Part shown: positions 8,956 through 30,260 of the stretch, in pieces
Position numbering within the stretch: the first letter of the stretch is position 1
Layout: each line of letters opens with the position of its first letter
Assembly (NCBI RefSeq): GCF_005696695.1
Contig: NZ_CP040006.1
Coordinates: forward strand, 30,001 to 62,000
DNA: 32,000 nucleotides
Source of the DNA: Schaalia odontolytica
GTDB taxonomy: Bacteria; Actinomycetota; Actinomycetes; Actinomycetales; Actinomycetaceae
Direction: 5' to 3'
Notes under the pieces: generated by a model
What the model was told of the DNA's origin: nothing
What the model saw: the letters and a program-made list of their open reading frames with translations, nothing else
The model's database searches: none
Made by a program: the position numbers and the translations under genes

Positions 8956-9414
8956 TCACTTCGCGGCGGAAACGCGGACCTTGAGGTTCGCGGACACCTC
9001 GGGGTGCAGGCCGACGGTCACCGTGTAGTCGCCAACGGCCTTGATGGGCGAGGCGATGATGACGCGACGACGATCGATGGTCTGGCCCAGCTGCTCCTTG
9101 ACCGCGTCAGCGATCGCAGCAGCGGAGACGGCGCCGAACAGGCGGCCGGAGTTGCCAACCTTGCCGGAGATCTCGACAACGGCACCCTGGAGGGCGTCGC
9201 GCACGGCGCGAGCGTCGTCGATCGTGGCGATCTCGTGGCGGCGACGAGCAGCGGCGATCTGGTCGATCTGCTTCTGCGCGCCGGCGGTCCACTTGGCGGC
9301 GAAGCCGCGGGGGACCAGGTAGTTGCGGGCGTAGCCAGCCTTGACCTCGACGACCTCGCCGGCGTGGCCGAGGTTGGGGACGTCGTGGGTGAGGATCAGT
9401 TTCGTGGTAGCCAT
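8956..9414 (-). CDS. rplI: 50S ribosomal protein L9
   Basis: 152 aa; MATTKLILTHDVPNLGHAGEVVEVKAGYARNYLVPRGFA is a typical L9 N-terminus. Confidence 0.95.
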   Translation of the reverse strand: MATTKLILTHDVPNLGHAGEVVEVKAGYARNYLVPRGFAAKWTAGAQKQIDQIAAARRRHEIATIDDARAVRDALQGAVVEISGKVGNSGRLFGAVSAAAIADAVKEQLGQTIDRRRVIIASPIKAVGDYTVTVGLHPEVSANLKVRVSAAK

Positions 9415-9435
9415 ATCAGCTGTGTCCTTCCCTTA

Positions 9436-9678
9436 TCAGCGGCCGGTCGTGGAGTAGGGCAGCAGAGCCATCTCACGCGCGTTCTTGACGGCGCGAGCGA
9501 TCTTGCGCTGCTCCTGGGTGGAAACACCGGTCACGCGGCGGGCGCGGATCTTGCCGCGGTCCGAGATGAACTTACGCAGCAGAGCGGTGTCCTTGTAGTC
9601 GATCTTTTCGATCTTGGCCGACTTCAGCGGGTTGGCCTTCTTCTTGATGGGCTTGTTGCGAAGTTGGGGCTTCGCCAT
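9436..9678 (-). CDS. rpsR: 30S ribosomal protein S18
   Basis: 80 aa; [50 protein letters not shown]. Confidence 0.95.
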
Positions 9679-9772
9679 GATGGTCTCCTAGTGAATCCGG
9701 GCGGACTGTGCCGCCCCAAGCGTGTTGTCTTCGACGTGGCGCTTTCCGGCGTAGGTGCCGGGGCGCTCGACT

Positions 9773-10339
9773 TTAGAACGGGGGCTCGTCGCCGAAGGAG
9801 GTGGCGCCGCCAGCGGGGGCGGAGCGCCACGGGTCCTCGGGGGAGCCGCCGGTCGGTGCGCCGTAGTTGGCGCCACCCTGGCCATATCCACCCTGGCCGC
9901 CGCCGTAACCGCCGCCCTGCTGGGGCGCGCCCTGCTGGCCGCGGTTGTCGGACTGGTAGCCGCCGCCACCGGAGGGGGCGGTGCGGGTGACCTGCGCGCG
10001 TGCGCGGCGCAGGGAGGGGCCGACCTCGTCGACCTGCAGCTCAACGACCGTGCGACGTTCACCCTGCTGGGTGTCGTACGAGCGCTGGGTGAGGCGACCC
10101 TGAACGATGACGCGCATGCCCTTGCGCAGCGACTCGGCGACGTTCTCAGCGGTCTCGCGCCACACGGAGCAGCGCATGAAGAGGGTGTCGCCGTCGCGCC
10201 ACTCACCGGCGTTACGGTCGTAGGTTCGGGGGGTGGAGGCCACCGTGAAATCGGCGACCGCGGCGCCGGACTGCGTCCAACGCAGTTCGGGGTCAGCGGT
10301 CAGGTTACCGATGACAGTGATGACGGTATCTCCGGCCAT
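9773..10339 (-). CDS. ssb: Single-stranded DNA-binding protein
   Basis: 188 aa. It has an OB-fold N-terminus ([27 protein letters not shown]), a Gly/Gln-rich linker and an acidic tip ending DEPPF. Confidence 0.95.
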
Positions 10340-10930: not shown

Positions 10931-12304
10931 CTACAGCGAGCGGGCGCCGAGCCAGTTGGTGAGGGCCCGCATGCCCGTGTAGACGGCCGAGTAGGCGAGC
11001 CAGACCATTGCGAGCGCCAGGGACGGGCGAGCGGTGAGGGTGGCGGAGTGGGCGATGACCCACAGGAGGGGCGCGTAGACGACCAGGTTGACGATGCCGG
11101 CGACGGCCAGGTAGCGGCCTCGGCCCGCGCCGATGAGCACGCCGTCAAGGAGGAACACGTAGCCGGCGACCGGCTGGAAGAGCGCGCCGACGATGATGGC
11201 GACGGTCGCGTAGTCGATGACGGTCTGGTCGGTCGTGAAGATGCGCGTGATCCAGGGCGCGGTGATCGCTAGGACGACGCCGACTGCGACGCCGAAGCCG
11301 ATGCCCCAGCGCGACAGCGTGCGCAGGAGGGGGCGCATCGCGCCGCGCTCTCCGGTGCCGGTCGTGAATCCGGCGAGCGCCTGGGCGGCGATCGCGAGCG
11401 CGTCGAGCACGTAGGCGGCGAACGTCCACAGGGTCCACACGATCTGGTGGGCGGCCAGGGCCTGGGTGGAGATCGCAGTGACCGCGCTCAGGGTCGCGAG
11501 GAGGGCGACGCGCAGCGCGAGGGTGCGTACGAGCAGAGGCGCGCCCTCGAGCGCTGCGCCGAACAGGCCGTCCGTGGAGGGACGCAGGCTCACGCCCTCG
11601 CGCCGGGCCGCGCGCACGATCATCCACCCGAGGAAAGCCGCCATGAGCGTCTGCGTGATCGCGGTGCCCAGGCCTGAACCCGCCACCCCCAGGTTGAGGG
11701 GGTACATGAGCACCCAGTTGGCCACCGCGTTGAAGGCCGCGCCCACGGACGCCGCGATCAGCGGGGTGCGGGTGTCCTGCAACCCGCGCAGGGTGCCGGT
11801 GGCTGCCAGGACGACGAACATGCCGACGAGGCCGGGCGCGGAGGCGCGCAGGTAGGCCAGGGCGTGCGGCATCGTCGCAGCGTCGGCCCCCAGCCAGGTG
11901 AGCAGGGGAGAGGCGAAGACGGCCAGGAGGATCGCGGCGAGGGCGCCAAGGCCTCCCGCCAGCCACATGGCCTCGACCCCCGAGCGGATCGCAAGGTCCC
12001 GTCGCCCGGCCCCCAGGTGGCGGCCCGCCAGGGAGGTCGTCGAGTAGGCGAGGAAGATGAAGAGCCCGACCGCCGTGTTCAGCACGGTCGACGCGATGCC
12101 CAGGCCCGCCAGCTGCGGGGTGCCCAGATGGCCCACCATCGTGGAGTCGATGACGGTGAACAGCGGCTCCGCGATCAGGGCCCCCAGGGAGGGCAGCGCG
12201 AGCGCCAAGATCATCCGCGTGGTGATCGTCGGGGTCGACGAGGCCGGGTCCCCCTCACGCTTCGCGGGTGAGGTCGGGTCGCTGGGTCCCTGTGTGCTCG
12301 TCAT
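10931..12304 (-). CDS. MATE family efflux transporter (DinF/NorM-like)
   Basis: Polytopic membrane protein with a MATE-typical start (ILALALPSLGALIAEPLFTVIDSTMVGHLG). The track start at 12358 has no RBS. The ATG at 12304 (MTSTQGPSD...) has GGAG 6 nt upstream, so I prefer it. Confidence 0.8.
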   Translation of the reverse strand: MTSTQGPSDPTSPAKREGDPASSTPTITTRMILALALPSLGALIAEPLFTVIDSTMVGHLGTPQLAGLGIASTVLNTAVGLFIFLAYSTTSLAGRHLGAGRRDLAIRSGVEAMWLAGGLGALAAILLAVFASPLLTWLGADAATMPHALAYLRASAPGLVGMFVVLAATGTLRGLQDTRTPLIAASVGAAFNAVANWVLMYPLNLGVAGSGLGTAITQTLMAAFLGWMIVRAARREGVSLRPSTDGLFGAALEGAPLLVRTLALRVALLATLSAVTAISTQALAAHQIVWTLWTFAAYVLDALAIAAQALAGFTTGTGERGAMRPLLRTLSRWGIGFGVAVGVVLAITAPWITRIFTTDQTVIDYATVAIIVGALFQPVAGYVFLLDGVLIGAGRGRYLAVAGIVNLVVYAPLLWVIAHSATLTARPSLALAMVWLAYSAVYTGMRALTNWLGARSL

Positions 12305-12317
12305 GACACTCCGATTC

Positions 12318-12565
12318 TTTTCCACAATGTGTGCACAGGCCTGTGGAAAGCCGTGCATTGGGAAATTCTAGATGGCTCAATGAATGACAATGATGTGACT
12401 GTGATGAGGATATCTGCCCTGACAGATCGGTCATTTCGCGTTGTGCACAGGCGTCGTCGGCGTTGTGCACAGGTTATCCACGATATGTGCACATGCCCGT
12501 GCACAGCGTCGGTCGCGCAATCTCCTACAACGCGTTAGTCTTCGCCTGAAGGCTCTCTATCCACA
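12318..12565. promoter_or_regulatory. Cluster of DnaA-box-like / TGTGCACA motifs flanking an AT-rich core, upstream of dnaB
   Basis: TTTTCCACA 12318-12326; TGTGCACA 12330-12337; TGTGGAAAG 12342-12350; cgTTGTGCACAgg twice (12439-12451 and 12461-12473); TTATCCACG 12474-12482; ATGTGCACAT 12485-12494; GTGCACA at about 12499-12505; CTATCCACA 12557-12565. An AT-rich stretch spans about 12351-12440. Confidence 0.4.
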
Positions 12566-12643
12566 GGGCTTCAGGCCGCGCTCGCGGCACTCAGCCCGGC
12601 CCCGGCCTCGTCCCTACACGCCCGCGCACCCGAGAGGATCACG

Positions 12644-13996
12644 ATGTCCGACGACCAGTTCGACCGCGTCCCGCCGCAGGACATCGACGCGGAGATGAGC
12701 GTCCTCGGATCGATGATGCTGACGACCGAGGCCGCCAACATCGTCTCCGAGATGCTGCGCGGGCAGGACTTCTACCAGCCCAGCCACGAGACGATCTTCG
12801 ACACCATCGTCGAGCTCAACGGCCGCGCGGAACCCGCCGACGCGATCACCGTCGCCGGCGAACTCAAGCGCGCTGGCGTCCTGTCGAAGGTGGGCGGCGC
12901 CGCCTACCTGCACACCCTCATCGCCTCCGTGCCCACCGCCGCGAACGCCGCCTACTACGCGCGCATCGTGCGCGAACGCGCCATCATGCGACGACTCGTC
13001 ACCGCGGGCACGCGCGTCGTCCAGCTCGGCTACGCGGATGCCGGCGGCGACGTCGACGAGATCGTCGACCAAGCCCAGGCCGAGGTCTACGCCGTCTCCG
13101 ACGGGCGCGAAACCACTGACTACGTGTCCATGACGCAGATGAGCTCGGACATCCTCAACGCCCTCGAAGACATCGAGAAGAACCAGGGCAAGCTCAACGG
13201 CGTGCCCACCGGCTTCACCGACCTCGACGAACTCACCCAGGGCCTGCACGGCGGCCAGATGATCATCGTCGCCGCCCGACCCGCCATGGGTAAGTCCACG
13301 CTCGCCCTGGATTTCTGCCGATCGGCGTCCATGAAGCACGGCATCACGTCGCTGATCTTCTCGCTGGAAATGAGCTCGCAGGAAATCGCGATGCGTATGC
13401 TCTCCGCCGAGTCCGGCGTGCGCCTGTCCAAGATGCAGGCCGGCAAAATGAGCGACGTCGACTGGCGCAAGGTTGCCGAAACCACCTCGCGCATGAGCGA
13501 GGCGCCCCTGTACGTCGACGACTCCGCGAACATCACCATCTCCGAGATCCGCTCGAAGTGCCGCCGCCTCAAGCAGCAGGAAAACCTGGGCCTCGTCGTC
13601 ATCGACTACCTCCAGCTGATGACGAGCGGCCGTCAGGTCGAGTCGCGTCAGCAGGAAGTCTCCGCGATGTCGCGAAACCTCAAGCTCCTGGCCAAGGACC
13701 TCGACATCCCGGTCATCGCCGTCGCGCAGCTGAACCGTAACTCTGAGGGCCGCACCGACCGTAAGCCCATGATGAGCGACCTGCGTGAATCCGGCTCGCT
13801 CGAGCAGGACGCCGACATCATTATCCTGCTGCACCGCCCCGACTACTACGACAAGGAAGATCGCCCCGGCGAGGCCGACATCATCGTCGCCAAGCACCGC
13901 GCCGGCGCGACCGCGACCGTCACCGCCCTCTTCCAGGGCGACATGGCGCGCTTCGTCAACTACACCGGACGCCCCGAGCCCGGCGGCGGAGAGTAA
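12644..13996 (+). CDS. dnaB: Replicative DNA helicase DnaB (no intein)
   Basis: 450 aa. N-terminus PPQDIDAEMSVLGSMML, Walker A ARPAMGKST, and the motifs VVIDYLQLM and IIVAKHRAGATA. A GAGAGGA RBS lies upstream. Confidence 0.95.
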   Translation: MSDDQFDRVPPQDIDAEMSVLGSMMLTTEAANIVSEMLRGQDFYQPSHETIFDTIVELNGRAEPADAITVAGELKRAGVLSKVGGAAYLHTLIASVPTAANAAYYARIVRERAIMRRLVTAGTRVVQLGYADAGGDVDEIVDQAQAEVYAVSDGRETTDYVSMTQMSSDILNALEDIEKNQGKLNGVPTGFTDLDELTQGLHGGQMIIVAARPAMGKSTLALDFCRSASMKHGITSLIFSLEMSSQEIAMRMLSAESGVRLSKMQAGKMSDVDWRKVAETTSRMSEAPLYVDDSANITISEIRSKCRRLKQQENLGLVVIDYLQLMTSGRQVESRQQEVSAMSRNLKLLAKDLDIPVIAVAQLNRNSEGRTDRKPMMSDLRESGSLEQDADIIILLHRPDYYDKEDRPGEADIIVAKHRAGATATVTALFQGDMARFVNYTGRPEPGGGE

Positions 13997-24437: not shown

Positions 24438-24465
24438 GATATGCGCGGTTAGACGCGGTGATGCG

Positions 24466-26028
24466 TCAGTTGGAGCTCTTCATGAAGTTCCACACGATGA
24501 CCAGCATGGCGCCGACCGGCTTGTTGGTCGTTGCCATGTCACGCATTTCATCGGCCGAGACGTCGGCGCTGGATCCCGCGAAGCCGCTCATGCCGTTGAC
24601 AGCCTCGTTGACCGCGGCATCCGTCGCCTCCAGCAGGTTCAGGTTACCGACCGTGCTGATGAAAGACACGTGCCAGCCGGTGTTATCCTGCACCGCGAAA
24701 ATGCCGAGGCGCTCGGGGTTGACGAGGCCCTCCGTGAATCGGACGGTCTGGCTCTGGGGCTTGGAGCTCGTGTATCGAGAGTTGTAGCTGGAGCCAGAGT
24801 CGGCGTAGCTGTAGGTCACAGTGTCGTTATTGAACTCAACTTTGTAGTTGCCATCGAAGGTGATGGACGTCGTGCCGAAGTTGACGACAGCTCCACCGCT
24901 CACCTTCGTGGACGTCAGTCCCCAGTTCACCTGGATGCTGTCGCCGACGCCACCGGTCGAGCCGGAGCCGCCGTAGACCGCGGCAACGCGACGCTCGGGT
25001 AGGTCAAGGTAGCGGTAGACCTCTTCGCTGCCCAGGCTCGCGCCGTTACGCAGGGCGTCGACCATGCCCGACACCGCTTCCTCGGGCGAGGAGGCTCCCT
25101 TGACGTCGGAGAACTTCGCAGAGTAGTTCGGCTGGCCCGAGCCCGTGCCCAGGTACTGTTCAGCTGCCGTCATGTAGCCGGACAAGTACCACTTTCCGTC
25201 TTCCTGGACGGAGACGAGCGTCAGCTTGTTGTTGGGGAAGTTCGTCAGGACGTTGCCGGAGGTGGTCGGGTTCTTCTCGATCCTCTCCTTCATATCGTCG
25301 AAGACTTTCGACTCGTTCGCCGTCAGGTCAGAACCCTTGGCTTCCTTGTAGTGCTCGCGGATCTTGTCGGCCAGCTCGGGCTTGACCTGGATGTCACCGT
25401 CCCACTTGGTAATGGTGATGAGCGCCAGCTGATCGGACTTGCTGTCGACCGTGTACTCCATATCGGAATTCTTGATCTCGATCTGGTCGATGTAGTCCTT
25501 GAGGGCCTGCGCATCCATCACCTTTGACCAGTTAGCGCCGCCGTTGGCCTTGTAATCCTTCTGCCAGGCGGTGGCCGCCGTGATCTCGGAGGGGGACAGT
25601 GCGCCCGCCAGCGACACGAGGGAGTTCTTTGAGAAAGCGGAATCGATTCCCTCAGCCAGGGCCTCGGGGCTCTTGTAACCGCCGCCAACCATGCGGGTGA
25701 GCGCGAAGGCGCCACCACCGATGATGACGAGAACGGCAACGACAATCACCGAGATGATGGCCGCCATCTTGCCGCGGCTCTTCTTTGCGCCCTGCTGGGG
25801 AGCCTGCCCCTGGTACTGGGGGTTGTAGGCGCCGGGCTGGGGGGCCTGTCCCTGGTACTGGGGGTTGTAGGCGCCGGGCTGGGGGGCCTGTCCCTGGTAC
25901 TGGGGGTTGTAGGCGCCGGGCTGGGGGGCCTGTCCCTGGTACTGGGGGTTGTAGGCGCCGGGCTGGGGCACCTGCCCCTGGAACTGACCGTTGGGGCCGG
26001 GCTGGCCGCCGTAGTTCGGGGTGGACAT
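24466..26028 (-). CDS. Single-pass membrane protein with a P/Q/Y-rich repeat N-terminus and a large extracytoplasmic domain; function unknown
   Basis: 520 aa. Four copies of YNPQYQGQAPQPGA are followed by the TM helix MAAIISVIVVAVLVIIGGGAFAL and then about 400 aa of Ser/Thr/Gly/Asn-rich sequence. I recognise no catalytic motif. Confidence 0.7.
   Translation of the reverse strand: MSTPNYGGQPGPNGQFQGQVPQPGAYNPQYQGQAPQPGAYNPQYQGQAPQPGAYNPQYQGQAPQPGAYNPQYQGQAPQQGAKKSRGKMAAIISVIVVAVLVIIGGGAFALTRMVGGGYKSPEALAEGIDSAFSKNSLVSLAGALSPSEITAATAWQKDYKANGGANWSKVMDAQALKDYIDQIEIKNSDMEYTVDSKSDQLALITITKWDGDIQVKPELADKIREHYKEAKGSDLTANESKVFDDMKERIEKNPTTSGNVLTNFPNNKLTLVSVQEDGKWYLSGYMTAAEQYLGTGSGQPNYSAKFSDVKGASSPEEAVSGMVDALRNGASLGSEEVYRYLDLPERRVAAVYGGSGSTGGVGDSIQVNWGLTSTKVSGGAVVNFGTTSITFDGNYKVEFNNDTVTYSYADSGSSYNSRYTSSKPQSQTVRFTEGLVNPERLGIFAVQDNTGWHVSFISTVGNLNLLEATDAAVNEAVNGMSGFAGSSADVSADEMRDMATTNKPVGAMLVIVWNFMKSSN
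25810..25977 (-). repeat. 42-bp in-frame tandem repeat (3 identical units + 1 near-identical, with degenerate flanks)
   Basis: ctggtactgggggttgtaggcgccgggctggggggcctgtcc starts at 25810, 25852 and 25894 (identical) and at 25936 (variant). Confidence 0.95.
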
Positions 26029-26166
26029 CGTTGTTACCTTTCACCGATGGGAGTGAACGTCGCAGTATTTCACTTTTGAAATACATTGGCAAGTGACGGT
26101 GTGACAGCGCGATGGGGCGGTGAGACTGACCGGAGCGACCGATAGGTGATGTCGTCCGTGAGTTTC

Positions 26167-26637
26167 TTATGGATAGCTGCGGACAGTGAACGCGGGGTCT
26201 GGGTCAAAGCAGAATGTTGCTTTCCCTGGGTTGGGGGTGAACCAGACGATGTCTGAGTGGGCTTCCTTGAGGGTGAAGGTGCCGACCCCCTCGATGGTGG
26301 TGCTGTCGCCGCGGTGGAGATCCACAGCGCCTCCGAGGAATTCGTAGTGTTCTTTGTCGGTGCGTGCTGACAGGCCGAAGGAACCGAGCTGGCGTCCCTT
26401 GGAGACTTCTCCGGAGATGCTGATGTAGACGGCGCGTCCATCGGGGATGGTTCCCAATTTCATGGATCGTTGCTTGTCGTATGGGGTGAGGTAGTAGTTG
26501 CCGGTGCAGGCTTCGCCTGTGGATTTTTCTTTCCAGGGCCAGGCGTAGGCGATGTGTGCGTAGGTCCAGGGGATGACGAACGCCAGGACGAGGACAGCTA
26601 CAACGATGGCGCGGACGCGTGCGGGTCTGTTGCTCAT
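26167..26637 (-). CDS. Membrane-anchored small protein; candidate immunity/accessory protein of the upstream protease toxin
   Basis: 156 aa. N-terminus MSNRPARVRA is followed by the TM segment IVVAVLVLAFVIPWTYAHIAYAW, which predicts an N-in topology with an outside domain. Its ATG overlaps the toxin stop in an ATGA. GC is reduced. Confidence 0.65.
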   Translation of the reverse strand: MSNRPARVRAIVVAVLVLAFVIPWTYAHIAYAWPWKEKSTGEACTGNYYLTPYDKQRSMKLGTIPDGRAVYISISGEVSKGRQLGSFGLSARTDKEHYEFLGGAVDLHRGDSTTIEGVGTFTLKEAHSDIVWFTPNPGKATFCFDPDPAFTVRSYP

Positions 26638-27947
26638 GGGATACGCCCAACGGTGACATCGCCAAAGTTTGCGTAGAAATCTTCCCAGCTCATCGTGAAG
26701 GTTGCTCCAGTGTCTCCTGTGCCTTTAATGCTGCGATTGTTAAGGCCCCACGGGTTGATGAGGGTGACGCCGTTCTCGTCTGCTCCAATCACCGTATATG
26801 CATGTTGGGAGACAATCTTAATTTTCTCGTGAGCCCCGTCGGGGGTGGTGACGGTCGTGTCATGTGTGAATATACTGGATTCTGCGACAACGGGTCTCTC
26901 CGCTTTGATGCCGTTGACAGCAGCTTCTTTCATGGCGCCTCGATCAAGTCCACCCCTAAAAGTCGGTGTGGCGTTCTCACCGGAGATGTCTTTCATTGTC
27001 CAAGCGCTGAAGCTTCCTGATGCTCCCCACGAGGGGAACTTTCCTTGCGTTCCCCCCATGTGCGACTGAACGAAGGCCTTTTCGAAGATGGAAGCGATGT
27101 CCGCCTGTGTATCGTTTCCATTGCCGTGAACGAGGACATCCTGCACGAAGACGCGTTGGTAGCCGCCATCATATCCAGGCAGAGTGACAAAGAAGCCGAT
27201 ACATTGTTCATTGGAGTCGAAAAGAGGAGTGATCATCTTTGCGAGATGTTCGCGTCCTTTCTTGGTCTGGTTGTAAGCGTTTAGTGAGGCGAGTAAGTGG
27301 CAATCGCCAATGCGGCCCTGATCGATGTCAAAAAGAGAGGAAGAAGGGTCAGCTTGTCGGGCAAGGATTTCCTCCAGTTCTGTATATGTCAGGGAGCGAG
27401 TATCCCCATAATCGAGCGTGTTCTTGACGCCATTTGATGTTTCCTCATGAATATCCTCTGGTGTGAAATACAAGGCCTCCCTGAGAAAAGCGGCCGTGCT
27501 CAATGCTCCTTCTGATAGGATATGTTTCGCATCGTCATAGGATTTCTGGAGATAAGCTAGTACGCCCTCAATCTCAGCGTGTTGACTTGATCTGGTTTCT
27601 GGGGACATTGCTTGGAATTGCTCCCACAATTCGTCTGCTTGGGCGCGGATGTTGTTGACTATTCTGATGACCGACTCCAGGATAAAGTAGTAGCTCTTCA
27701 GAGCGTCGGCAGCCTGGAGGCAGCCGTCTTCCCAAATGCTTATCTCTTTTTGTTCCGCTCGTGCGCTGTCGTTAAAGGCCTCTCTAGCGAGTCCTCTCCA
27801 ATCTCCGCATGTGCTGATAGCGTCGGTGAGGCTAGTGCCCAAATCGCGAATATCTCGCCTGCGATTTCTGATTTCGTTTTGGCTCGACCAAATTGCACCA
27901 AGGTCTCCCGTTACTTCTGGGAAACGCTGTGAAAACCGTGTTGACAT
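26634..27947 (-). CDS. WXG100-type N-terminal domain fused to a calpain-like (peptidase C2 / papain-fold) cysteine protease domain; candidate T7SS polymorphic toxin
   Basis: The track ORF starts at 28058 and overlaps the upstream gene by 98 nt. I trimmed it to ATG 27947, with GAGGGA 5 nt upstream, giving 437 aa. The WxG signature is CGDW50RG52LAREAF, flanked by long helical-looking segments. The catalytic motifs are IDQGRIGDC216HLLASLNAY (Cys codon 27300-27302), SQH382AYTVIG (His codon 26802-26804) and LIN398PWG. These match the calpain motifs GDCW.LAA / GHAYSV / RNPWG. Confidence 0.75.
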   Translation of the reverse strand: MSTRFSQRFPEVTGDLGAIWSSQNEIRNRRRDIRDLGTSLTDAISTCGDWRGLAREAFNDSARAEQKEISIWEDGCLQAADALKSYYFILESVIRIVNNIRAQADELWEQFQAMSPETRSSQHAEIEGVLAYLQKSYDDAKHILSEGALSTAAFLREALYFTPEDIHEETSNGVKNTLDYGDTRSLTYTELEEILARQADPSSSLFDIDQGRIGDCHLLASLNAYNQTKKGREHLAKMITPLFDSNEQCIGFFVTLPGYDGGYQRVFVQDVLVHGNGNDTQADIASIFEKAFVQSHMGGTQGKFPSWGASGSFSAWTMKDISGENATPTFRGGLDRGAMKEAAVNGIKAERPVVAESSIFTHDTTVTTPDGAHEKIKIVSQHAYTVIGADENGVTLINPWGLNNRSIKGTGDTGATFTMSWEDFYANFGDVTVGRIP

Positions 27948-27960
27948 AATTCCCTCATTC

Positions 27961-28257
27961 CTACAGCTTGGCTCGAAGTGCCGCGAAGAACTCTGCCGCT
28001 TCATCGTCGGTGTCTGCGGATGCTTGTGCGGTGGTATGTAGGCTGTCGGAGCATCCATTGAGCCATTTTCGCGTCGTTTGGCCGCGCTTGTTGTACATGG
28101 AGACGAAGTAGGCCAGTGCTTCCTGCACGACGGCGTCTCCGCAGTCGAAGGAATCGTCGGACTTGGTGAGCTCCAAGTCGGACATTCTGTCGGCCAAGCG
28201 GCTCATAAGTACTGATGCCTCTTGGACATCCACGGGATTCATCTGAAAATCGCTCAT
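27961..28257 (-). CDS. Small ESAT-6/WXG100-like helical protein (candidate secretion partner/chaperone)
   Basis: 98 aa. It begins MSDFQMNPVDVQEASVLMSRLADRM, the pattern of many Esx-family N-termini. It has no signal peptide. AAGGAGGA lies 4 nt upstream of the ATG. Its stop is 13 nt before the toxin start. Confidence 0.6.
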   Translation of the reverse strand: MSDFQMNPVDVQEASVLMSRLADRMSDLELTKSDDSFDCGDAVVQEALAYFVSMYNKRGQTTRKWLNGCSDSLHTTAQASADTDDEAAEFFAALRAKL

Positions 28258-28422: not shown

Positions 28423-28489
28423 CGAAAAAGCGTGACACCTTCGTGGTGTCACGCTGGCGGGGGTGGGGCGCGTGTCGTTCACGCGCCCC
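28423..28489 (-). terminator. Two tandem hairpins terminating the small membrane-protein gene and insulating the cassette
   Basis: ggggcgcgtg / cacgcgcccc (28465-28489). gcgtgacacc / ggtgtcacgc (28430-28454), followed on the minus strand by TTTTTCG. Confidence 0.75.
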
Positions 28490-28497
28490 GCATAAGC

Positions 28498-28716
28498 TCA
28501 GGCGCGAGTGCGAGCGATCGAGAGAAGAGCGGGGGAAACGATCAGGGCGGTCAGAGCGATGACGATCGCGAAGACGACCGATGCGACGGAAGCGACCTGA
28601 AGGGCAGCGAACACGCCGAGGCCCGCGAGAACAACGATCAGGGCGATGAGAACGGAAGCCGAGGCGGTGGCCTGGGACATGGTGGGGGCGGTTTCAGCCT
28701 TGACGATCTGGTTCAT
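28498..28716 (-). CDS. Small hydrophobic protein (72 aa, about 2 TM helices), function unknown
   Basis: The track ORF starts at 28866. I trimmed it to ATG 28716, preceded by AAGGAGAA-CCCC. The sequence is MNQIVKAETAPTMSQATASASVLIALIVVLAGLGVFAALQVASVASVVFAIVIALTALIVSPALLSIARTRA. Confidence 0.6.
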   Translation of the reverse strand: MNQIVKAETAPTMSQATASASVLIALIVVLAGLGVFAALQVASVASVVFAIVIALTALIVSPALLSIARTRA

Positions 28717-29459: not shown

Positions 29460-30260
29460 CTACTTATCTCCACTTAGTCGAACCGGAACGATCGCCTGCA
29501 CGTCCTCTCCCTCGAAGGCGACGTTGCCGATCGCCACGTCCACCCCGAAGACGCTCGCGAGGGTGTCCGCGTTCATGACGGAGGACGCGGGGCCGACCAC
29601 GGCCTCGTGAGTGGAGGAGAAGAGCGCGACCTGGTCGGCGACGCGCAGGGCGTGCGCCGGGTAGTGCGTGTTCATGATGATGGCGAGGCCTCGGTCCCTC
29701 ACGAGGCGCTCGAGGAGTCCCAGGACGATTAGCTGGTTGCGGAAGTCGAGGCCGGTTTCCGGCTCGTCGAGCACGAGGACGCGCGGGTCGGCGACGAGGG
29801 CGCGGGCGATGAGGATCATCTGGAACTGGCCGCCCGACATGGTTGCGCAGGGCATCTCGGCCAGGTGGGAGGCGCCCACCTCGTCGAGGACGTCGCGGGC
29901 CATGCGCTCCTCGCGCGCGCCGGGCTGGGCGAGGGTGCGCATGTGCGGGGCTCGCCCGACCATCACCATCTCGAGGCCGGTGAGCGCCACGTTGGATGCG
30001 TTGCGGGCCTGCGGCACGTAGGACAGGACGCGGCCCAGCGCCCGGGTCGACATCGACGAAATGGGGGTGCCGTCGATGAGCGTGCGCCCGCTGTCCCATT
30101 TCTGCAGGCCGATCATGGTGCGCAGCAGCGTCGTCTTGCCGGCGCCGTTGGGCCCCAGGATCGCTAGGAGTGAGCGCTCGGGCACTTCGAAGGACACGTT
30201 CGTCAGGATCGGGGAGGGTGCGCCCGGATAGGTGAAGGTCGCGTTTTCGACGCTGATCAT
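29460..30260 (-). CDS. ABC transporter ATP-binding protein (FecE/FepC/BtuD-type, iron-siderophore/heme/B12 importer class)
   Basis: Trimmed to ATG 30260, which forms an ATGA overlap with the permease stop. Walker [10 protein letters not shown], signature MSGGQFQ, Walker B VLVLDEP. Confidence 0.9.

Follow-up and report, generated by a model that had tools for sequence, protein, structure and literature searches.

The 32,000-nucleotide stretch of Schaalia odontolytica DNA analysed here (the window; positions 30,001 to 62,000 of contig NZ_CP040006.1) carries on its minus strand a compact cassette of three genes, which encode a 98-amino acid (aa) helical hairpin (27961..28257), a 437-aa effector (26634..27947) and a 156-aa exported protein (26167..26637). 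We consider it quite probable that this cassette is an Esx (type VIIa secretion system, T7SSa) effector/immunity module of oral Schaalia and Pauljensenia species whose payload is a calpain-type enzyme. In such a module the hairpin would pair with the N-terminal domain of the effector to form a helical bundle that the EccC ATPase recognises, and the resulting complex would be exported. The calpain-like Cys-His-Asn protease would then act in the wall zone or on the external side of the membrane, where its substrate might be an envelope protein (exported or anchored in the membrane) or a cell-wall peptide bond, and the likely targets would be neighbouring Schaalia or other actinomycete cells. The co-translated 156-aa protein, tethered or secreted outside the membrane, would most likely bind and block the protease and so protect the producer and matching strains.

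The effector and its predicted calpain-type protease domain

The effector reading frame (26634..27947, minus strand) opens with an ATG at 27947 that is preceded by a GAGGGA ribosome-binding site. The approximately 120 effector homologues listed are 435–440 aa long, begin at the same methionine and have N-termini of the MSTRF or MHSPF type. A longer, 474-aa frame that starts at 28058 overlaps the upstream gene and is used by none of these homologues, and we rejected it because their lengths and N-termini do not fit it. No Sec signal peptide is present in the effector, whose highest 19-residue Kyte-Doolittle mean is 0.95 (versus 2.24 in the 156-aa neighbour); this agrees with the original prediction, made from the sequence of the window by itself, and the motifs quoted there do sit at W50-R-G52, C216, H382 and N398.

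By profile and by predicted structure, the C-terminal half of the effector is a calpain-type (C2) protease domain, and proteolysis is its predicted activity. This Peptidase_C2-like cysteine protease domain comprises residues 201–437 and the stop codon (26634..27347, minus strand). Pfam Peptidase_C2 (PF00648) matches residues 204–402 (E 1.3e-9), and the score of 38 bits exceeds the curated cut-off of 23.8. An AlphaFold2 (AF2) model of the effector was built on 20 homologues and has a mean predicted local distance difference test (pLDDT) score of 65, with higher values over the β-rich C-terminal part; when it was compared with the PDB by Foldseek, the top match was m-calpain (3df0_A; E 1.1e-5, probability 1.0, 263 columns). 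The calpain/papain-type fold that had been proposed for this half is thus supported by both the Pfam profile and the structural match. At the level of PDB sequences, calpains were the sole matches of the isolated domain, each individually non-significant (E 0.4), and their alignment places QGRIGDC216 on QGALGDC105 and SQH382AYTV on KGH262AYSV; PDB sequence searches with the full effector and with the profile of its close family returned nothing meaningful.

The catalytic positions are C216 (27300..27302), H382 (26802..26804) and N398 (26754..26756, within the NPWG motif), all on the minus strand. Together with the oxyanion residue Q210 and with P399, W400 and G401, they are invariant in an alignment of 20 close effector homologues (A1, 52–90% identity), and all seven residues are also kept in those full-length members of an alignment of distant relatives (A5, 19–44% identity) that carry the C-terminal domain. 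Peptidase_C2 was matched by Pfam in 15 of 23 relatives scanned, and NCBI names family members 'C2 family cysteine protease'. Among other cysteine-peptidase families the effector matched only Peptidase_C39_2, and weakly (E 0.13).

Compared with the PC1/PC2 core of eukaryotic calpain (3df0, 1kfu), the effector has the same predicted fold and shares the Gln-Cys...His...Asn order and the GDC, HAY[ST]V and NPWG motifs. It differs in its overall identity of about 19%, in having a His after the catalytic Cys where calpain has a Trp, and in lacking the C2-like and penta-EF-hand domains. Its catalytic His and Asn are 16 residues apart, whereas the spacing in calpain is 24 residues.

A WXG100/PPE-like N-terminal domain

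Model and family profiles together support the view that the N-terminal half of the effector is a secretion domain of the WXG100/PPE-like kind. AF2, Foldseek and profiles delimit a three-helix domain at residues 1–165 (27453..27947, minus strand). In the AF2 model, helices 16–49 and 53–113 lie on either side of the W50-R-G52 turn (W50-x-G52; 27792..27800, minus strand), so that the helix-turn-helix with a WxG turn read from the sequence is also seen in the model, and a third helix spans residues 123–160. Among the 20 close homologues G52, A54, A57 and F58 are invariant and W50 is present in at least 90%, and W50 and G52 are the only columns that are invariant across the whole alignment of distant relatives. 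In the Foldseek search the five matches that follow calpain are PPE41 and PPE15 of mycobacterial ESX-5 (E 0.01–0.04, probability ~1, target TM-score up to 0.68).

Because the window effector alone falls below the Pfam cut-offs, homology of the N-terminal domain was tested through its relatives. A profile of this domain (A2) found 29 clusters among 1.84 billion representative proteins. In the 23 scanned relatives, Pfam WXG100 was matched in nine (best 3.2e-10), T7SS_signal likewise in nine (best 3.9e-7) and WXG100_2 in five. When a profile of diverse N-terminal domains (A8) was run against the PDB, the top four matches were all WXG100 proteins, with WxG aligned on WxG: 4lws_A (E 0.0028; listed in the PDB as 'Uncharacterized protein', and which we take to be the Thermomonospora curvata EsxA/EsxB entry), two Staphylococcus aureus EsxA entries (E 0.016) and Geobacillus EsxA (E 0.087). 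The source annotation of the S. hyovaginalis relative is 'Uncharacterized protein YukE', and that of P0180, a weakly related protein described below, is 'WXG100 family type VII secretion target'. The WXG100 assignment made in the original prediction is therefore supported through the family, whose profile matches EsxA/EsxB, whose members match WXG100 and whose model resembles PPE41/PPE15; the window protein by itself is below the Pfam cut-offs. The LXG models suggested at the same time for this domain gave no Pfam match at E <= 1.

After the WxG turn, the best conserved feature of the N-terminal domain throughout the family is L-R-x-A-L-[HY]-x-[ET]-P at residues 155–163, in which L155 and L159 are nearly invariant; its L155-R-x-A-L159 core (27471..27485, minus strand) closes the domain. 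This motif may serve as a signal or as a hinge, or may be where the protein is processed. It is followed by a linker (residues 166–200; 27348..27452, minus strand) between the secretion and protease domains that is variable and modelled with low confidence. The pLDDT falls below 50 at residues 156–190 and 198–214, and the linker region has the lowest between-allele identity in the effector (29–86%).

A survey of homologues for variable C-termini, which the idea of a polymorphic toxin had suggested, was negative save for a single weak case. The full-length members of the 29 clusters have a calpain-type C-terminal domain in common (QG.IGDC ... NPWG), one of them having CHAP instead, and all 13 genome loci encode full-length calpain fusions; no other C-terminus was found behind this N-terminal domain in the 29 clusters drawn from the 1.84 billion representatives. 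The CHAP case is P0180 (374 aa, JGI metagenome), in which a weakly related WxG N-terminal domain (E 4.6e-4) precedes a CHAP amidase, and it is the only alternative payload that we found. Since the N-terminal domain is almost exclusively tied to calpain, the label of a domain-swapping 'polymorphic toxin' does not apply to the family.

The likely hairpin partner and the link to type VII secretion

Between the end of the upstream 98-aa gene (27961..28257, minus strand) and the effector start there are 13 nt, and the 98-aa gene is served by a separate AGGAGG ribosome-binding site. Its product is a WXG100-like helical hairpin of the DUF6317 type with CGD at the turn (CGD or TGD in the family) in place of WxG. 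Pfam DUF6317 is matched in 14 of 21 members of this family (best E 6.7e-7), and there are weak matches to WXG100 and EspC. Among PDB entries the family profile matches S. aureus EsxA best (2vs0_A, E 0.0027), with an alignment that covers the full length. A small hairpin gene lies beside the effector gene in every close locus that reaches far enough upstream; in distant loci a homologue is found upstream of the effector in L022 and L024 and downstream in L021. The 98-aa protein is likely a co-secreted targeting partner of the effector. A literature search on PF21725 and DUF6317 found nothing.

In S. hyovaginalis the trio is situated inside an ESX cluster, with EccC/EccD on one side and two WXG100 genes (EsxA/B), EccD, EccB and mycosin on the other. 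S. odontolytica itself has a functional Esx system (eccC, EsxA/B), which in strain F0309 limits Saccharibacteria (TM7) (Wang et al., bioRxiv 2026, PMC13622651). The same authors describe eight further S. odontolytica Esx substrate candidates that are encoded outside the cluster, each beside a WXG100-like hairpin gene, and report that TM7 induces five of these eight; their text makes no mention of calpain. They also provide an allelic-exchange system for Schaalia.

The exported third protein and the probable site of action

The third gene (26167..26637, minus strand) begins with an ATG that overlaps the effector stop codon as ATGA, and we regard its 156-aa product as a candidate immunity protein or protease inhibitor. 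The N-terminus of this protein is basic and then hydrophobic (19-residue hydropathy mean 2.24, as above), which fits a signal-anchor or a signal peptide, and a possible signal-peptidase site lies between AYA and W. Its AF2 model (pLDDT 64) has a helix at residues 4–32 followed by a seven-stranded all-β domain. In the family, which comprises 298 clusters, C44 and C143 are invariant and the middle (residues ~59–116) is variable. The protein matches no Pfam family, and its weak matches to CshA_repeat (E 3e-4 to 0.03) are below the cut-off.

The genes downstream of distant effectors encode proteins that share the GxGTFTL and FCF-P motifs (GxGTFTL...FCF.P) with the 156-aa protein, and these proteins are lipoproteins (lipobox LTGC, IAGC or LSSC) or bear signal peptides. 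A signal or lipobox is thus found on the third-gene product in all lineages examined. The earlier suggestion that the immunity domain is extracytoplasmic gains support from these relatives, which are lipoproteins or signal-anchored. Because the candidate inhibitor lies outside the membrane in every lineage examined, the effector most likely acts in the wall zone or at the extracytoplasmic side of the membrane. S. hyovaginalis (L022) has two immunity paralogues after the effector, a signal-less 112-aa protein (9405..9743) and a 177-aa lipoprotein (9773..10306), and this pair hints at protection in two compartments.

Such a site of action would also suit a papain-fold triad that works on a substrate other than protein, for example a peptidoglycan stem-peptide or cross-bridge amidase or a transglutaminase-like enzyme, in which case the effector would be wall-lytic in the manner of the NlpC/P60 and CHAP toxins. 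The CHAP amidase that replaces calpain in P0180 is in keeping with this idea, as are the NlpC/P60 payloads that are frequent in actinobacterial T7SS toxin loci (PMC13444075). However, the significant matches of the effector are calpain-specific (Pfam C2 and 3df0 by Foldseek), with none to NlpC/P60, CHAP or transglutaminase; the match to Peptidase_C39_2 is weak; and the calpain motifs QG.xGDC, H-A-Y-[ST]-V and N-P-W-G are retained. We therefore think a wall-lytic enzyme unlikely and favor a protease of the calpain type.

Allelic variation at the locus

We compared the window with 19 related loci, in which the gene order is csp (cold-shock protein gene), the gene for a 72-aa membrane protein, hairpin gene, effector gene, immunity gene(s) and hemL. 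The csp and 72-aa products are 82–100% identical across these loci (92–100% except in S. meyeri, L012), and the corresponding values are 39–94% for the hairpin, 51–92% for the effector and 47–97% for the immunity protein. The immunity gene is present in one copy in the window, L004 and L014 and in up to at least five divergent tandem copies in L007 and L011. The window's sole immunity allele recurs at 96–97% identity as the second or fourth copy in L010 and L013, as expected of an orphan immunity gene. The ends of the immunity genes (26530..26640 and 26186..26301, minus strand; in L007 within 11311..13850) are 92–96% identical between tandem paralogues whose middles are divergent, and these conserved ends look like recombination handles for the exchange of cassettes. 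Effector alleles are mosaic as well: N-terminal, middle and C-terminal segments differ in their nearest relative (P0028 versus P0008 and P0031 in alignment A1), a pattern that indicates within-gene recombination.

More distant relatives of the effector, at 25–33% identity, occur in Schaalia sp., Actinomyces sp. ICM58, Actinomyces oral taxon 848, Buchananella hordeovulneris and S. hyovaginalis. The domain architecture of the effector is preserved in these relatives, and at the distant loci L020–L024 the effector gene is still overlapped or closely followed by a downstream gene. Overall, the trio is maintained from 90% to approximately 25% identity across Actinomycetaceae, with its start/stop overlap.

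The strain-level hypervariability and the arrays of orphan immunity genes argue for intraspecific antagonism. The module shares with polymorphic toxins (Zhang et al. 2012), the class to which the effector was originally assigned, a downstream immunity gene joined to it by ATGA, immunity arrays, hypervariability and mosaic alleles; the alternative C-terminal domains of that class are what it lacks. In the 2012 catalogue of polymorphic toxins several papain-fold toxin domains are included, and calpain is not among them.

Antagonism need not be directed at kin, and the effector could instead be a secreted protease aimed at Saccharibacteria (TM7) epibionts or at host proteins, with the 156-aa protein serving to shield the producer's surface from collateral cleavage. 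The extracellular location of the immunity domain, where epibionts attach, is in line with such a role. A calpain-family protease, Tpr of Porphyromonas gingivalis, degrades host proteins. The restriction of TM7 proliferation by the S. odontolytica Esx system, and the induction by TM7 of five of the eight candidates encoded outside the cluster, point in the same direction, although the effector is not named in that study (PMC13622651). On the other hand, the combination of as many as five divergent immunity paralogues with strain-to-strain replacement of the alleles of the effector and the first immunity gene is the signature of an arms race within a species, and orphan immunity copies would be needless for a self-shield alone. 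We give this alternative a rather small chance, and we continue to favor an effector directed at neighbouring Schaalia or actinomycete cells.

Evidence against export, and the strength of the case

A number of observations weigh against the T7SS effector/immunity interpretation or weaken parts of it. The window effector on its own is sub-threshold for T7SS_signal (18–20 bits versus a cut-off of 27; E 6e-4), and no match of the protein itself to Pfam WXG100 was reported. Y87-x-x-x-E91 in the N-terminal domain (27675..27689, minus strand) is invariant in the close clade (A1); YxxxD/E is limited to that clade, and we make no claim that it is a YxxxD/E secretion signal because the wider family has Y-x-x-x-L. 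No T7SS core gene was found within the 32-kb window. Under laboratory conditions only four proteins made up the S. odontolytica Esx secretome, all of them encoded in the Esx cluster (PMC13622651), so export of a protein like the effector was not seen there. Foldseek found no significant neighbour of the 156-aa model, its best match being a coronavirus spike lectin domain (E 0.046), and we therefore draw no link to inhibitors of the chagasin or staphostatin type. Both AF2 models are of only moderate confidence, with pLDDT values of 65 for the effector and 64 for the 156-aa protein. Finally, covariation between the variable regions of effector and immunity protein is only suggestive, with no overall correlation; the one clean case is L019, in which the immunity variable region and effector residues 403–437 are each 100% identical.

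A protease that stays inside the cell, is regulated through its helical domain and has no functional relation to the neighbouring genes would accommodate the lack of T7SS genes in the window, the sub-threshold WXG100 scores and the lack of a report of the effector in the Esx secretome (PMC13622651), but this reading is very improbable given the conservation of an overlapping gene trio down to about 25% identity, the invariable export of the third gene product, the copy embedded in the S. hyovaginalis ESX cluster and the profile matches to EsxA/EsxB.

Comparison with known systems

The fusion of a WXG100 domain to calpain had been thought not to belong to a described family; this proved incorrect, as Rawlings (2015; PMC4631099) had recorded proteins that combine WXG100 with calpain in Herpetosiphon aurantiacus and Segniliparus rugosus, and L. 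Aravind, as a reviewer of that paper, considered them likely T7SS toxins. The same article describes bacterial calpain homologues as being without calcium sites. The Herpetosiphon and Segniliparus fusions (MEROPS C2) have an N-terminal WXG100 domain and then a calpain-type peptidase, like the Schaalia effector, and we liken them to it by architecture only. They differ in coming from Chloroflexota and Mycobacteriales, and they were given as a domain listing without a described partner, immunity protein, locus structure or experiment.

Schaalia is a monoderm actinomycete without arabinogalactan or mycolate layers. In gene order and predicted features its module resembles the EatA/TapA/EatI loci, with a small helical gene upstream, a helical-bundle toxin and a signal-bearing immunity protein downstream. 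Such eat-like loci of Actinomycetota consist of one or more tap-like genes, a helical-bundle toxin gene and a lipoprotein or transmembrane (TM) immunity gene for extracellular targets (Benedict et al., Nat Commun 2026, PMC13444075), and toxins of the EatA/TapA/EatI type are ESX-secreted and toxic to neighbours; the text of that paper makes no mention of calpain. The payload of EatA is a GH183 endo-arabinanase that acts on arabinogalactan, whereas that of the Schaalia effector is a calpain-like protease, and there is one partner gene in the Schaalia module versus two in the EatA/TapA/EatI loci.

With the mycobacterial PE/PPE proteins and EspB the Schaalia pair has in common the N-terminal domain model that resembles PPE41/PPE15, an approximately 100-aa hairpin encoded directly upstream and a WxG on the larger partner. 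Unlike PE/PPE, the Schaalia pair has no PE or PPE Pfam match, its partner protein has no clear YxxxD/E and its effector ends in an enzymatic domain; no chaperone of the EspG type was seen close to the locus.

TipC, the partner of TelC in Streptococcus intermedius, is membrane-anchored and extracellular. TelC is a T7SS-exported toxin whose site of action is the wall zone outside the membrane, where its immunity protein also neutralises it (PMC6193138), and the proposed module would work in the same way. TelC differs in having an LXG domain and a lipid II phosphatase payload and in belonging to the T7SSb of Bacillota, whereas the Schaalia effector is WXG100/PPE-like.

Already known, then, are T7SS toxin-immunity modules with a papain-fold payload and extracellular immunity, the WXG100-calpain architecture (since 2015) and the NCBI family name. 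Newly described here are the hairpin/effector/immunity trio as a conserved unit of Actinomycetaceae and its exported immunity family. We know of no demonstration that a calpain-family protease is a toxin secreted by a type VII system, and a role has been assigned to few bacterial calpains. The module offers a compact, genetically tractable test case for a calpain-type T7SS effector. Few characterised T7SS toxins have a target in the envelope, which is where the exported immunity protein suggests that this effector acts, and the 156-aa protein is a candidate new proteinaceous inhibitor of enzymes of the calpain type. Between oral Schaalia genomes that are otherwise almost identical, few places vary as much as this locus, which probably influences how strains compete in the mouth; the Esx system of the organism has recently been tied to defence against Saccharibacteria (PMC13622651). 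A wider and more doubtful idea is that the calpain effectors of Actinomycetaceae and their all-β partners form an uncharacterised extracellular protease/inhibitor pair that serves as an interbacterial or anti-epibiont weapon, the 156-aa family being a new class of calpain inhibitor. Rawlings proposed that calpains arose in bacteria (PMC4631099), and following that proposal one may speculate that calpain toxin domains are placed close to the root of the eukaryotic calpains.

Genomic setting

The module lies in a hypervariable, lower-GC island (24439..28240) between conserved flanks, with csp and the 72-aa gene on one side and hemL on the other. The flanks are 92–96% identical in nucleotide sequence to other Schaalia and Pauljensenia loci, including that of Schaalia sp. 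ORNL0103; this identity stops at 28240 and restarts at approximately 24438. The island has a GC fraction of 0.575 and the effector gene one of 0.513, as compared with 0.688 and 0.645 in the flanks. The rest of the 32-kb window is housekeeping DNA of the high-GC actinomycete type, with a CCA/polyA polymerase-type gene and genes for 6PGD, a class A penicillin-binding protein, MatE, DnaB and EamA proteins, the heme operon (hemA, E, Y, C, D, B, L), a cold-shock protein and a Fec-type ABC importer.

The conserved 72-aa protein (28498..28716, minus strand) has two TM segments, and its gene always precedes the toxin operon. An intrinsic terminator (28429..28455, minus strand) with an 11-bp stem that contains seven G-C pairs, followed by a T-run, lies between the two. 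We rejected this protein as a member of the module because it is conserved with the flank (82–100%) and because the strong terminator separates its gene from the operon.

A further gene inside the island (24466..26028, minus strand) encodes a 520-aa membrane protein without a Pfam family. Its Pro/Gln-rich N-terminus contains four tandem YNPQYQGQAPQPGA repeats, and it has one TM segment and an ectodomain of about 400 aa. Among the related loci the gene is present only in L013 (75% identity), and it is uncertain whether the protein belongs to the module.

Two of the assemblies that carry the Schaalia locus are titled 'Sanguibacter keddieii 250_SKED' (L010, NZ_JVOJ01000061.1) and 'Xylanimonas cellulosilytica 352_XCEL' (L019, NZ_JVKM01000064.1). 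The flank of L019 is 96% identical in nucleotide sequence to that of the window, and the csp and 72-aa products of L010 are 97–99% identical to their window counterparts; both records are probably mislabelled.

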